Source: a virus
IMG/VR virus record: IMGVR_UViG_3300013934_000002
Coordinates: 1 to 6,805 of that record
Length of the DNA: 6,805 bases
Reading direction: 5' to 3' (one strand)
Shown: piece by piece, positions 3,807-6,805 of the stretch
Position numbering within the stretch: position 1 is the first letter of the stretch
Layout: each line of letters begins with the position of its first letter
The notes under the pieces: model-generated
The model's database searches: none
What the model was told of the DNA's origin: nothing
The model's input: only the letters and a program-made list of their open reading frames with translations
Position numbers and translations under genes: made by a program

Positions 3807-5093
3807 ATGGCTCGTTGTTTTCGTTATGGTCTCTTCGTTCTGGCTGCTGTTCTATACAGCGTCCAAGTAAGTGCGGCACGTCAGGTAATCCCTGAGCCCG
3901 GTGAAGTTCAACGCGCATGGGTTCCAGGTGCTGGCCCTACTTCTTTTGTCGATTCCAGGGACTGGAACGCCACAGTTAGCACTCAGAGTGGCTCACGTGT
4001 TCAGCTTCCTGTTAATGGCAAGCGTTCATACGGCTGGCCAAAATGGGCCGGCGCAGCAAAGCAATTTGTGAAGAAGTCGCCTCAGCAGGCCGCTGCCGCT
4101 GCAGGTTTGGCTGGTGTTTTTGCTGCTGTCGATTGGGTCATGGATCAAGGGCAATTCAAGCGTCCCGGTGATGGCGGGGTTTGTTATCACGCCTATTACG
4201 GCGGCACGGGTATGGCTACCGCTTGTGAGTATGAATCTGCCGGAGATGCATGCCGTGCGCTCTACAGCATGAGCGGCATTAGCCATAAGGGGGCTGGCGC
4301 ACTTTCTGGGGGCTCATGTTATTACCATCACCTCACCAATGTGCCTTCGCTTGTTCAGTCTGGATACTGGAAAGAAGTAAATCCCGACCCTTCTACGCAG
4401 CCCCGTGTTCCCGTTACCGATTCCGAGATCGATAATCTCATCGATGGTATTACTGATCCTAACGTAGCGGCAGAGTCAGCCCCTTTCATTGAGCAGAATC
4501 TGCCCGGTTCGTTCGACTACCCCGATGGATTCGAATTTTCCGGCCCTCAGTCCGTTGACTTGCCGGGCGTAGTAACGACTAAAACGGACCCAGCCACTGG
4601 CAACACGACCACTACGGAAGTTCTTCCATCTGTGCAGTTCGAATATGGAACCAACCCGTGGTCGATTACGCCTACCGATAAGACAACGAAGAACACATAT
4701 GAGAATGGCCAAAAGACCCAGACCGAAGAGTCCGTTTCCACTGATCCCGTAAATAGTGGCGGTGTTTCTGTACAGCCAAAGCCTGTCGAAATTCCAACCG
4801 ATTGCGACTTTATGCCAACGGTCTGCAAGTTCATTGATTGGGTGAAGGAACCGTTTACCGAAGAGACTCCTGATTTTTCTGACCTTATTGAAGATGAGGA
4901 CTTTTCAGAGTCCATAACCATTTCAGGCAATGCAACTTGTCCAGCTCCTACCATGATCGAGACCAATCTTGGCTCTTTCGAATTTAGCTGGCAACCTGCT
5001 TGCACTTGGGCGGGAATGATTAAGCCGCTTGTTATCATTGCTGCGCTAATTGCAGCCATTTATATCAGTCTCGGCGTAGCGAGGTCGGAATAA
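3807..5093 (+). CDS. gIII: gpIII-like adsorption/minor coat protein (428 aa)
   Basis: There is a signal peptide MARCFRYGLFVLAAVLYSVQVSA/AR, a Cys-containing N-terminal domain and a Thr-rich linker (TTKTDPATGNTTTTE). The C-terminal block C..FEFS..C plus the TM anchor MIKPLVIIAALIAAIYISLGV resembles the gpIII C-terminus. GGGAG lies 8 nt upstream of the ATG. Confidence 0.85.
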   Translation: MARCFRYGLFVLAAVLYSVQVSAARQVIPEPGEVQRAWVPGAGPTSFVDSRDWNATVSTQSGSRVQLPVNGKRSYGWPKWAGAAKQFVKKSPQQAAAAAGLAGVFAAVDWVMDQGQFKRPGDGGVCYHAYYGGTGMATACEYESAGDACRALYSMSGISHKGAGALSGGSCYYHHLTNVPSLVQSGYWKEVNPDPSTQPRVPVTDSEIDNLIDGITDPNVAAESAPFIEQNLPGSFDYPDGFEFSGPQSVDLPGVVTTKTDPATGNTTTTEVLPSVQFEYGTNPWSITPTDKTTKNTYENGQKTQTEESVSTDPVNSGGVSVQPKPVEIPTDCDFMPTVCKFIDWVKEPFTEETPDFSDLIEDEDFSESITISGNATCPAPTMIETNLGSFEFSWQPACTWAGMIKPLVIIAALIAAIYISLGVARSE

Positions 5094-5374
5094 TGCCTGC
5101 GATACTTGTAACCATCGGCGTCTACATAATCTCCAGCGTCATCGCTAAGATATTCGTCGCCCTTGGTATCGGCGTTTTTACTTACTACGGACTGCTCTCG
5201 CTCGTTGAGCGACTTGTACAGCAGGTGCAACTTGCTTTTGGCGGTCTTCCGGGGCAAGTAACTCAAGTGCTTAGCATCGCCGGAATTCCTGAGGCACTTT
5301 CTATCGTCTGTAGCGCTTTCCTCACTCGCGCCTCTATCCAGGCTATTCAAACTTTCTTCGGGTCTCGCATATGA
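5093..5374 (+). CDS. gVI: gpVI-like minor coat protein (93 aa, multi-TM)
   Basis: It is coupled by TAATG to gIII and by ATGA to gI. It is a hydrophobic protein; GLPGQVTQVLSIAGIPEALSIV resembles the Ff gpVI QLPSDFVQGVQLILPSNALP region (recalled). Confidence 0.8.
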   Translation: MPAILVTIGVYIISSVIAKIFVALGIGVFTYYGLLSLVERLVQQVQLAFGGLPGQVTQVLSIAGIPEALSIVCSAFLTRASIQAIQTFFGSRI

Positions 5375-6396
5375 TCACCCTTATCACAGCTGTTCCAGGT
5401 AGCGGAAAAACTCTTTACTGCATTGGTTTGATCCTCAAGGCAGTCGAGGAGGGCAGACCCGTCTATTCCAACATCGCCGGCCTCAAAATCCCTCAGTGCC
5501 ACCCAGCTCCTGATGACTGGCGAGACACTCCCGAGGGTTCGCTCGTCGTCTACGATGAGGCTCAGCAGCCTCACCTATACCCATCCACCGCCCACCGTGG
5601 CGAGGTCAAGGATGAGCGTCTACGCCAGATGGAAGTCCACCGCCACACTGGACATGACCTTGTGTTCGTCAGCCAGTCTCCCAGCTTCCTGCATCACCAC
5701 ATCCGCAAGCTGGCCGGCGAGCACATCCACCTTTATCGCGCCTTCGGCGCCAAGATCGTCACGAAGTACACTTGGCAGCACACCGTCGACTCCCCCAACG
5801 ATCGAGGGGAGCAGGGCAGAGCTGACAGCGTTCCATGGAAGTTTCCCAAGGAGCATTTCCAGTACTACCAGTCGGCCACCATCCACACACACAAGTTCAA
5901 GATGCCAAAGAAGCTGGCGGCGCTCCTGCTGCTCATCGTCGCTGTTGCTGGCCTTGTCGTCTGGAACGCTGCAACCAATGAGAGCAGTCTGCTGACCGGC
6001 TCAGGTGCTGACATTCATCAACCTGTTGCCTCTGCAATGGCAGCGCCTTCTGAGCCCAGTGGTGTACGCGCAGCGGCCACCACGGGCCAGAAGAAAGCGC
6101 TGCCAGCTACGACAACCCTCTATGACTGGTCAGAAACCGAGACGGCCAAGCCTGTTGCCGGCTGCATTTACAACGCGACCCGCTGCCAGTGCTTCGACGC
6201 TTCCGGTTCGCTCTACGCGATGGCTCATGCACAATGCCTGTCCGTGGCATCGAACATGCTGCCGCGATCCATCAACGTAGGAGGTTCTAGCCGTGGGTCT
6301 TCAAGACAGGGAATGGTTTCAGGAGAGTCGCAACAATCGCTCATCGGCGCGAATCCATTCGCCGAGGCAGCAACCCCGGCGCCGGGGGTTCTTTAG
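5371..6396 (+). CDS. gI: Zot-like / gpI assembly ATPase (341 aa)
   Basis: It has Walker A AVPGSGKT at residues 7-14, Walker B LVVYDEAQ, a central TM segment LAALLLLIVAVAGLVVW, and a periplasmic C-x-C..C tail (TRCQCFDASGSLYAMAHAQC). Confidence 0.9.
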   Translation: MITLITAVPGSGKTLYCIGLILKAVEEGRPVYSNIAGLKIPQCHPAPDDWRDTPEGSLVVYDEAQQPHLYPSTAHRGEVKDERLRQMEVHRHTGHDLVFVSQSPSFLHHHIRKLAGEHIHLYRAFGAKIVTKYTWQHTVDSPNDRGEQGRADSVPWKFPKEHFQYYQSATIHTHKFKMPKKLAALLLLIVAVAGLVVWNAATNESSLLTGSGADIHQPVASAMAAPSEPSGVRAAATTGQKKALPATTTLYDWSETETAKPVAGCIYNATRCQCFDASGSLYAMAHAQCLSVASNMLPRSINVGGSSRGSSRQGMVSGESQQSLIGANPFAEAATPAPGVL

Positions 6397-6490
6397 TCAC
6401 TTTGTCGTGCTCGTCCTGGGCATTGTGATCGGCATGGTCGTTGCCGATCTGCACTGGCTCGACATGCTGCGGCAGCAGCTCCCGTTCTGA
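6293..6490 (+). CDS. 65-aa bitopic membrane protein (basic N-terminus, one TM), overlapping the gI 3' end out of frame
   Basis: A GTG start has AGGAGG (6279-6284) 8 nt upstream. The non-overlapping part (6397-6490) has very high GC3 in this frame. The TM segment is FFSHFVVLVLGIVIGMVVA. Confidence 0.6.
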   Translation: MGLQDREWFQESRNNRSSARIHSPRQQPRRRGFFSHFVVLVLGIVIGMVVADLHWLDMLRQQLPF

Positions 6491-6496
6491 TGGGGC

Positions 6497-6524
6497 GCTT
6501 CGCATAATGGAGATTATGAAATGA
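6497..6524 (+). other. dif-like site a: GCTTCGCATAA-TGGAGA-TTATGAAATGA (11+6+11)
   Basis: The XerC arm is identical to that of site b and lies within the 17-nt perfect direct repeat GGCGCTTCGCATAATGG (6494-6510 and 6679-6695). The centre matches TGTATA at 4/6. The XerD arm keeps only the inner TTATG. Confidence 0.6.
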
Positions 6525-6679
6525 TCCTGACTTACGAGCTGGTCGATAACCCCGGCTACGAGTACGAAGACGAAGTTCAGACCCAGTACGATGCGTGTGT
6601 AAGGCTTCAGTCAATCGAACCGTTTTGTGTTTGGTGGCAACTGACGGATGGCTCTGGTGAGCTTGTCATGTCGTCTTAG
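6521..6679 (+). CDS. 52-aa strongly acidic protein MILTYELVDNPGYEYEDEVQTQYDACVRLQSIEPFCVWWQLTDGSGELVMSS
   Basis: It is below the ORF-track cutoff. GGAG lies 8 nt upstream of the ATG, and GC3 is about 62% by hand count (higher in the first half). There are 10 D/E residues against 1 R. The ORF exactly fills the interval between dif-like sites a and b. Confidence 0.5.
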   Translation: MILTYELVDNPGYEYEDEVQTQYDACVRLQSIEPFCVWWQLTDGSGELVMSS

Positions 6680-6775
6680 GCGCTTCGCATAATGGGTAAC
6701 GTTACGTTTAATCGCGTCGGGAAGATGGTCAGCGGTCCCGGCGCGATTTAATGTAACGTTGATTATGCGCTGCGC
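6680..6775 (+). other. ~96-nt imperfect hairpin formed by two inverted dif-like sites (candidate ssDNA attP); truncated copy at 1-93
   Basis: 6680-6722 pairs with 6736-6775. By hand I count 34 Watson-Crick pairs, 2 G.T pairs, 1 T.T mismatch, a 2x2 internal loop, a GGGT-versus-G bulge and a 13-nt apical loop (6723-6735). CGCATAAT (6686-6693) pairs with ATTATGCG (6762-6769). Confidence 0.75.
6682..6712 (+). other. dif-like site b: GCTTCGCATAA-TGGGTAACG-TTACGTTTAAT (9-nt centre); partial copy at 1-30
   Basis: The XerC-type arm contains TTCGCATAA, as in the Pseudomonas/Xanthomonas-type dif recalled as GATTCGCATAA TGTATA TTATGTTAAAT. The XerD-like arm matches TTATGTTAAAT at 9/11 but lies after a 9-nt spacer instead of 6. 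Confidence 0.6.
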
Positions 6776-6805
6776 TATCGAACTCGAACCCTATGCCATC
6801 AAGAC
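6683..6805. repeat. Right copy of the exact 123-bp terminal overlap (= 1-123)
   Basis: Identical to 1-123. It contains second copies of dif-like sites b and c and the first 41 nt of the 83-313 CDS (ATG at 6765). Confidence 0.97.

Follow-up and report, generated by a model that had tools for sequence, protein, structure and literature searches.

Results

The window analysed here is a 6,805-nucleotide stretch of viral DNA (positions 1 to 6,805 of IMG/VR virus record IMGVR_UViG_3300013934_000002), and our subject is a 185-bp unit near its right end that holds one open reading frame (ORF) of 52 codons, ORF52. The window derives from an inovirus of the Stutzerimonas (P. stutzeri) group whose phage attachment site (attP) is a hairpin of the CTX-phage type. 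Its ends are redundant (the repeat listing gives 1–123 and 6683–6805 as a perfect 123-nt repeat), and this perfect terminal overlap indicates that the window is a complete circular genome of 6682 bp. Comparison with related sequences leads us to conclude that the unit at 6508–6692 is probably a promoterless, single-gene miniature IMEX (an integrative mobile element that exploits Xer), moved by XerC, the host's chromosome-resolving recombinase.

Anatomy of the unit and its borders

The unit was recognized through a perfect 17-nt direct repeat, GGCGCTTCGCATAATGG, which the first-pass annotation of this DNA had placed at 6494–6510 and 6679–6695 with a period of 185 bp; these coordinates are confirmed. 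The repeat has two matches in the window at ≤2 mismatches and none at that threshold in 200 dinucleotide-preserving shuffles, and the pattern CGCATAA-N6-TTA is present in three places (two of which are one site in the terminal overlap) against 0.24 expected. The second copy of the repeat crosses the artificial end of the linearised window. The features concerned are the following.

6293–6490, plus strand: 65-amino-acid (aa) membrane-type ORF, the final backbone gene upstream of the cassette
6494–6510, plus strand: direct repeat copy 1, GGCGCTTCGCATAATGG
6497–6507, plus strand: predicted XerC-binding arm a, GCTTCGCATAA; non-coding, directly behind the stop codon of the 65-aa ORF, and bounds the cassette on the left
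6508–6513, plus strand: central region of site a, TGGAGA; also the Shine-Dalgarno sequence of the cassette ORF and the predicted start of the mobile unit
6514–6524, plus strand: XerD-like arm of site a, TTATGAAATGA; degenerate, equal to the spacer plus ATG of the cassette ORF
6521–6679, plus strand: cassette ORF (ORF52), 52 aa, acidic
6679–6695, plus strand: direct repeat copy 2, GGCGCTTCGCATAATGG
6682–6692, plus strand: XerC arm b, the top-strand XerC arm of the hairpin attP; ends up in attR (the regenerated dif) of lysogens
6508–6692, plus strand: predicted mobile unit, 185 bp, between the XerC crossover points, starting with the centre of site a and including all of XerC arm b

ORF52 is, as annotated, the only ORF of the interval (the sole sense ORF, 52 aa), and its two ends do lie at the arms of the sites, with the ATG (6521–6523) in the XerD-like arm and the TAG (6677–6679) 2 nt before the second XerC arm. 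The period of the unit is 185 bp in 33 loci, 186 in 4 and 187 in 2. Homology between phages starts at XerC arm a: among 37 unique cassettes, conservation is 0.48 in the flank upstream of arm a, 0.966 in arm a, 0.995 in the centre (invariably TGGAGA except for one TGGAGG) and 0.941 in arm b. Arm a, at 0.966, is far better conserved than the third codon positions of ORF52 in the same cassettes (0.751), and since it is non-coding and lies outside the ribosome-binding region, translation does not account for its conservation. Site a is thus kept beyond what a Shine-Dalgarno sequence and start codon need (0.97 in its XerC arm against 0.75).

The XerD side of site a differs. TTATGAAATGA matches the canonical XerD arm TTATGTTAAAT at 6 of 11 bases, and its variants include TTACGAAATGA, TTACGCAAATGA (with one extra nt), TTACGGAATGA, TTACCGAATGA, TTACAAATTGA and TTAAGAAAATGA; only TTA is invariant (alleles TTATG-, TTACG-, TTACC-, TTACA- and TTAAG-), and several alleles have one additional base ahead of the ATG. 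To judge from these variants, the XerD-like arm serves as the spacer between Shine-Dalgarno sequence and ATG. The earlier description of a regular 11+6+11 site therefore stands for the conserved XerC arm and centre and fails for the XerD-like arm, in which TTA alone is constant and a 1-nt indel occurs; given this degeneracy, site a is best named left-armed (XerC arm plus central region). The variable base of arm b (GCG[C/T/G]TT...) shows no consistent link to the cassette allele or to the hairpin type.

Filled and empty alleles in phages

IMG/VR was scanned with the start of the hairpin, and phages with and without ORF52 were retrieved. Two of those without it (L062 and L052) read ...cacctgtggtgatccattcagaTGGGGCGCTTCGCATAATGGGTAACG... 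with a single XerC arm, and two others (L057 and L032) have the same type of flank, then the cassette, then a second arm. Along the genome L062 is 93–99% identical to L057 and 91–99% identical to L032, and in each case the sole gap is 185 bp with a 17-nt overlap. Two other types of flank likewise occur both empty and filled (L064 versus L020 and L036; L055 versus L024, L037 and L050). Exactly one period of 185 bp thus separates the filled from the empty form in each of three independent phage backbones, and the empty form keeps one XerC arm. A homolog of the 65-aa ORF is followed directly by a single XerC arm and the hairpin in L001 and L060. The annotation had proposed that the interval could be gained or lost whole, and this is borne out by the exact one-period indel in the three phage backbones and in the plasmid-like element described below; the interval is not invariant among relatives. 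Among GenBank phages the search gave distant relatives only; two of these, blackswan219-1 and silverpheasant213, have no cassette but were set aside as too divergent to serve as matched empty alleles.

The cassette in a ParA plasmid-like element

The protein allele closest to that of the window (P0001, 96% identical) is encoded on four independent contigs (L008–L011), where it follows an operon of ParA, a 96-aa and a 76-aa ORF; the ParA gene resembles those of Pseudomonas and Azotobacter (Pseudomonadaceae) plasmids. Three other contigs (L079, L080 and L081) have the same ParA operon without ORF52. With slashes between arms and centre, the empty allele reads ...TAG CCGGCTTTCGCATAA/CACCCA/TTATGTTAAAT in L079 and CTTTCATTCGCATAA/TACCCA/TTATGTTAAAT in L080 and L081, and the filled allele reads CCGGGTTTCGCATAG/TGGAGA TTATGAAATGA...ORF52...TCTTAGGCGTTTCGCATAA/CACCCA/TTATGTTAAAT, with TAGGCGTTTCGCATAA as its right arm. 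The insertion splits a canonical 28-bp XerC-centre-XerD site at the border of XerC arm and centre. The empty L079 matches the filled L008 at 97% on one side of the insertion and at 93% on the other, their alignment having 12 nt of overlap and a gap of 185 bp, and the cassette copy is 94.6% identical to that of the window. In the filled site the recipient's arm lies on the left and a cassette-type arm (preceded by TCTTAG) on the right, which is what single-site integration on the XerC side predicts. Stretches of 10–13 nt are shorter than the usual k-mer sizes of assemblers; with a shared stretch of this length and four assemblies of the filled form, a chimera made by the assembler is unlikely.

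PLSDB, searched with the cassette, gave no match, and no Xer site follows the par genes of the Azotobacter plasmid whose ParA is nearest. In L008 (1266–1280) the filled left arm ends CATAG rather than CATAA, and the altered base adjoins the point at which XerC presumably cleaves; the change might fix the cassette in place or be a scar left by the exchange.

Horizontal spread of the cassette

Left flanks that carry the cassette fall into at least 23 unrelated clusters. The window's cassette is 95–98% identical to those of L019, L020, L021, L022, L015 and L005, and the 400 nt upstream align no better than chance (~50%). Similarity to L022 runs from GGCGCTTCGCATAA of arm a to CGCATAATGG of arm b, after which the hairpins differ. 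Conversely, the backbone of L042 is 81–90% identical to the window and its cassette only 77%. ORF52 homologs, 73–98% identical, were found by protein searches at about 45 loci, nearly always after the final backbone gene of an inovirus, and these inoviruses are very different (their Zot proteins have 305, 341, 397, 407, 412, 425 or 434 aa, and their replication proteins differ too). These comparisons show a cassette that many phages and one plasmid-like element have acquired, lost and exchanged whole.

ORF52 might instead be a vertically inherited accessory gene at the end of the operon, whose ribosome-binding region resembles a dif half-site by chance and which has repeatedly suffered precise deletions. 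TGGAGA-N8-ATG is indeed a good Shine-Dalgarno sequence and start, ORF52 follows Zot without a left XerC arm in L075, L076 and L012, and free-standing homologs of 55–57 aa (P0013, P0014, P0017 and P0019) occur in other phages, one of them on a 61-kb phage contig among small early-type ORFs. Against this stand the 95–98% identical cassettes behind backbones that cannot be aligned, the divergent cassette in the same backbone, the 94.6% identical copy inside a plasmid-like Xer site for which an empty allele exists, and the conservation of an 11-nt XerC arm outside the ribosome-binding region; this explanation is already disfavoured, and we regard it as very improbable. In L075 (1329–1460) ORF52 is preceded by the arrangement Zot TGA-tcgct-ATG, and L076 and L012 have ...CTCTGGTAA/TGGAGATTAC at the Zot stop, which may be a pseudo-site. 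The arm-free state may be ancestral, in which case one illegitimate exchange at TAA/TGGAGA would have made the first arm-bounded copy.

A second cassette and a cargo slot

The prophage L027 is collinear with the window and ~93.7% identical to it, with one extra unit between the 65-aa ORF and site a.

L027 6790–7032: second arm-bounded cassette, 243 bp, in tandem with that of ORF52; its ORF, of 48 aa, is basic (MKVKRSRYANAERLRH...)

The L027 array reads arm/TGGGCA TCATGTCGCTG...48-aa ORF...GGATTAG GCGCTTCGCATAA/TGGAGA...ORF52...arm/TCTATA TTATGTTAAAT, and the TAG stop of the 48-aa ORF abuts the arm, like that of ORF52. The window is thus the empty allele for the 243-bp unit. This insertion at arm a/TGGAGA shows that the border itself gains and loses units and that arrays form; arrays with two copies of ORF52 were looked for and none was found.

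Other small ORFs lie between Zot and attP. L083 has after Zot an ORF 67% identical to the 48-aa ORF, with no left arm. Small Cys-rich ORFs occupy the slot in L059 (~2650–2845; MADLDLDRDELGSCEWCG..., no left arm) and in L055 (~4270–4380) and L024 (MLMQLLRHTRCEHCG..., with TAG directly before the arm). From these gene orders the slot between Zot and attP appears to be a general cargo position.

Lysogen junctions and the hairpin attP

The hairpin that overlaps the right end of the unit is the following.

6680–6775, plus strand: CTX-phage-type attP(+) hairpin, formed in the single-stranded genome by pairing of two inverted dif-like half-sites

It is long and imperfect (DNA fold –35.4 kcal/mol, z = –7.4), and its stem differs with compensating changes in L003 and L007. 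Pairing of its bottom arm with arm a was considered and rejected, since the minimum-free-energy fold of 6480–6790 uses arm b.

CTX phage integrates as a single strand through XerC exchange (PMC4246890). The junctions of four prophages (L003, L005, L007 and L027) have the attL and attR anatomy of such hairpin integration: attL consists of the chromosomal XerC arm and the remainder of the hairpin (L005 2690–2790; L003 3333–3428, with a different stem), and attR reads ...TCTTAG GCG[C/T/G]TTCGCATAA/TCTATA or TGTATA/TTATGTTAAAT, so that arm b together with this centre and XerD arm makes up a canonical dif. Tandem prophage junctions are present in L007, L018, L032 and L035. In all 14 lysogens ORF52 and arm b are followed at the right end by the dif centre and XerD arm, which puts the crossover used by this phage family on the XerC side. 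Comparison thus shows the carrier phage to be a CTX-type IMEX whose folded single strand integrates at the Stutzerimonas dif by exchange at arm b. Exchange at this arm leaves the cassette as the last segment on the right of the prophage, flanked by site a and by the regenerated, fully canonical dif.

The junctions also bear on the idea, raised in the first-pass annotation, that the phage uses site a as a duplex attP beside the hairpin. Site a would then be a second, VGJ-type attP of the whole phage, used in its replicative form, and the cassette a by-product of having two attPs. Such sites are known (PMC4246890), site a has a canonical XerC arm and a centre that starts TG(G), like the top arm of the hairpin, and a cointegrate through site a would offer the cassette one route to new backbones. 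Integration was nevertheless through arm b of the hairpin in 14 of 14 lysogens and through site a in none: each has the hairpin remainder at attL and ORF52-arm b-dif at attR, and chromosomal arm/TGGAGA junctions number 0 of 14. Many close relatives lysogenise without having site a (attL of L067 and L053), and the plasmid-like insertion would be left unexplained. The proposal of a duplex attP is thus unsupported, and we judge this account of the cassette quite unlikely.

The tandem prophage of L005 was rejected as evidence of Xer activity, being a partial duplication (3973–10152 and 10153–16333) with a non-Xer junction. That junction, GTCATGT joined to TACACCCCC, lies within ORF52 and yields an 82-aa fusion (P0002), with a TGT microhomology adjoining the inverted repeat GGGGGTGCTGTTACACCCCC; L016 has one copy of this phage. 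The duplication may be an event related to the replication origin.

Proposed mechanism and its weighing

Under the reading that we prefer, a mini-IMEX moved by host XerC, the unit would have inserted at the border between XerC arm and central region of the phage's own Xer attachment site, duplicating the XerC arm; arm a would be the recipient's and arm b would have been brought by the cassette. Host XerC, with XerD bound, would occasionally recombine site a (or arm b) with a further Xer site by swapping a single pair of strands; the partner might be, for example, a prophage-end dif, the attP of a phage or the resolution site of a plasmid. The Holliday junction would be resolved as in VGJ-type IMEXs, which integrate and excise by XerC-only exchange and in which DNA between a VGJ-type site and dif is co-excised (PMC4246890). 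The 185-bp unit might be excised as a circle and re-inserted, or a cointegrate of replicative-form phage and target might be formed at site a and resolved at arm b; the cointegrate route is the more plausible for so short a unit, since it avoids a tiny circle. The cassette would then enter virions and a new phage if it inserted at a resident prophage's dif and rolling-circle production ran on across tandem prophages. The comparisons above show the borders, targets and polarity of the unit, its arrays and its horizontal spread; Xer catalysis is inferred from the anatomy of the junctions. The first-pass annotation had offered a miniature IMEX or a pdif-like module; the one-period alleles favour the former, and the latter falls because the arms are direct repeats.

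A number of observations weigh against this reading. A lone cassette at a chromosomal dif was not found among the protein-search loci or the 14 lysogens examined, and no contig with the circle junction (arm b/TGGAGA alone) was among those recovered. All 14 lysogens retain site a and a true dif 185 bp apart, and because the two are stably kept, the Xer reaction must be rare at best. XerD binding at site a is doubtful, given the poor conservation of the XerD-like arm. Counted on the XerC side, TGGAGA has 2 nt in common with TGTATA, a single nt with TCTATA, 3 nt with TGGGTA of the hairpin and none with CACCCA, and known XerC-first reactions need a few paired central bases on that side. A length of 185 bp is short for synapsis and for circle formation. 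The arm-free state in L075, L076 and L012 means that ORF52 is also an ordinary terminal gene. Xer dependence, a 185-bp circle and an excision junction are all predictions from sequence comparison, and since the crossover lies within a shared stretch of 10–17 nt, Xer and short-homology products would be identical in sequence.

The last point leads to the most serious alternative, that the unit is gained and lost but not by Xer, the 13–17-nt repeats (the XerC arm of attP and its copy) serving as short homology. Loss would then be RecA-independent slippage or template switching, and gain would be recombination between co-resident replicons. Each filled/empty pair does fit a crossover anywhere in the shared arm, and the lack of conservation in the XerD-like arm, the non-homologous central regions of donor and target, and the stability of the cassette beside dif in the 14 lysogens all fit as well. 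Mere homology would not, however, require that the non-coding arm a be held at 0.97, and insertion at a single-copy 10-nt match in an unrelated replicon is improbable. Both borders are XerC-binding arms, the targets (the phage attP or prophage-end dif and the 28-bp plasmid site) are Xer sites, and a second, unrelated cassette of like architecture sits at the same border. We therefore consider exchange by short homology unlikely, though it deserves more weight than the other alternatives.

The cassette gene and its product

Conservation of ORF52 at codon positions 1, 2 and 3 is 0.89, 0.93 and 0.75, a pattern that marks it as a translated gene. Its product has no family match in Pfam or PHROG, and a scan of metagenome (JGI) proteins gave 7 loci and nothing new. 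The AlphaFold2 model is beta-beta-alpha-beta-beta with a pLDDT (predicted local distance difference test) of 70, and the best Foldseek matches in the PDB, the anti-CRISPR AcrIF9 and the T4 antitoxin Dmd, are not significant (E 0.055–0.3). Several of the top HMMER hits (P0010, P0012, P0015 and P0016, with many repeats) were discarded as spurious matches to low-complexity or unrelated-domain proteins.

No promoter-like site was found in 6100–6805, and ORF52 lies on the strand of the upstream operon in phage and plasmid-like contexts alike; together these make expression by read-through likely, and gene order suggests that ORF52 is read through from the Zot or the par operon. Gene order also suggests that the product is a small acidic phage accessory protein, and a role against host defence is a weak guess. 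The unit has no recombinase, its only ORF being the 52-aa one without Pfam or PHROG match, and there is no integrase gene in the window or among the prophage genes called in L005 and L006.

Other features of the carrier genome

The remaining backbone genes that were assigned are as follows.

1611–2948: G2P-type replication protein (Pfam PF05144, E 4e-49)
3807–5093: pIII-like protein
5371–6396, plus strand: Zot-family assembly ATPase, encoded on the strand of the cassette ORF (Pfam PF05707, E 3.8e-21)

The window's closest GenBank relatives are metagenomic Inoviridae, and prophage copies of its relatives are present in Stutzerimonas kunmingensis and S. stutzeri genomes; the lysogen L015 is S. 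kunmingensis BUN14. The C-terminal part of the pIII-like protein weakly resembles Neisseria TspB (PF05616, E 1.3e-4).

A 10-nt palindrome, GTAACGTTAC, lies at 890–899 and 953–962 in a divergent regulatory region and at 6696–6705 (equal to 14–23) in the top arm of the hairpin attP, with 5 matches at ≤1 mismatch where 0.10 are expected. The palindrome may act as the operator of a repressor in both the regulatory region and attP. The conserved 76–78-aa ORF at 83–313 (phrog_13909) has its ATG inside the bottom-strand complement of the XerC arm, TTATGCGCTGCGC (82–93, equal to 6764–6775), an arrangement also present in L001, L002, L003 and L005; both XerC-type arms of the phage thus overlap or abut gene ends. 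Finally, direct and inverted repeats of the CATGCATGCATGCA type (D5, I9) occupy 1579–1667, at the start of the replication gene between divergent ORFs, and may be origin or regulatory elements.

Significance and comparison with known systems

Xer is known to be exploited by phages, satellites and genomic islands that measure several kb, and by the dif modules of Acinetobacter plasmids, which have inverted sites and a mechanism still under debate. If it is Xer-mobile, a 185-bp unit consisting of a gene and a XerC arm would be smaller than any element so far known to be mobilized by a host recombinase, and in the literature that could be searched we found no paper on a directly repeated Xer cassette of less than 1 kb. 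The unit would also show that dif-integrating phages have a defined cargo slot, filled by site-specific capture, that is the same as the ctxAB slot of CTX phage, and it would be a very small, easily synthesised Xer substrate with which to ask about the need for a XerD arm, the need for central homology and the minimal spacing of sites. The family of its cargo protein, uncharacterised so far, has undergone selection for mobility among phages and is therefore a candidate for acting on the host or against its defences. More tentatively, and with confidence that stops somewhat short of calling it probable, we suggest that Stutzerimonas inoviruses and plasmids may host a gene-cassette system run wholly by the housekeeping XerCD, in which left-armed, single-ORF units (185 and 243 bp) would be captured successively on the XerC side of any resident Xer site (prophage-end dif, phage attP or plasmid resolution site), expressed by read-through and spread in virions. 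Such a system, if real, would be an integrase-free analogue of the integron and would include the smallest IMEX known.

The closest parallel is with the VGJ-type IMEXs, which have a duplex attP of ~29 bp and integrate reversibly. Like them, the unit has no recombinase of its own, one duplex, at least partly dif-like site with a good XerC arm, a crossover at the border of XerC arm and central region, and an inserted form that lies between directly repeated Xer sites with one functional dif. VGJ phage differs in being a 7.5-kb, self-replicating and self-packaging element, whereas the unit has 185 bp, one 52-codon ORF and no replication or morphogenesis function. The unit also differs in riding on other IMEXs and on a plasmid-like element, in having a degenerate XerD arm that overlaps a start codon, and in having as targets a phage attP and a plasmid site, beyond the chromosomal dif.

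The carrier phage, rather than the unit, is of the CTX-phage IMEX type, with a hairpin attP, XerC-side junctions and tandem prophages, and its cassette sits in the slot between zot and attP that is held by ctxAB. Vibrio CTX+ prophages have rstR and ctxB as their terminal genes (PMC12715192). ctxAB differs from the cassette in that no second Xer site borders it, and it is not known to move as a Xer cassette. The lack of a bona fide XerD arm at site a recalls TLC phage and the 17-bp "left-armed" dif-like attP sites of Vibrio IMEXs (PMC4246890; PMC12715192). TLC phage differs in that it uses a XerD-first exchange via XafT, whereas the junctions of the unit are on the XerC side and ORF52 has no Pfam similarity.

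The pdif or dif modules of Acinetobacter are similarly small, have borders of XerC/XerD type, occur in varied plasmid contexts and in arrays, and have their movement attributed to host Xer. Their sites are inverted (alternating C/D and D/C) and they belong to Acinetobacter plasmids, whereas the unit has direct repeats, duplicates the XerC arm alone, measures 185–243 bp with a single promoterless ORF, and is found in Stutzerimonas inoviruses. In its organization the unit resembles an integron cassette: a promoterless single ORF with one recombination site, held in one orientation behind an expressed operon and able to occur in tandem arrays (L027), integron cassettes being read from the promoter Pc as ORF52 would be from the upstream operon. 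Unlike an integron cassette, it has no attC, IntI or attI; its site is a Xer half-site, and its presumed enzyme is the housekeeping XerCD.

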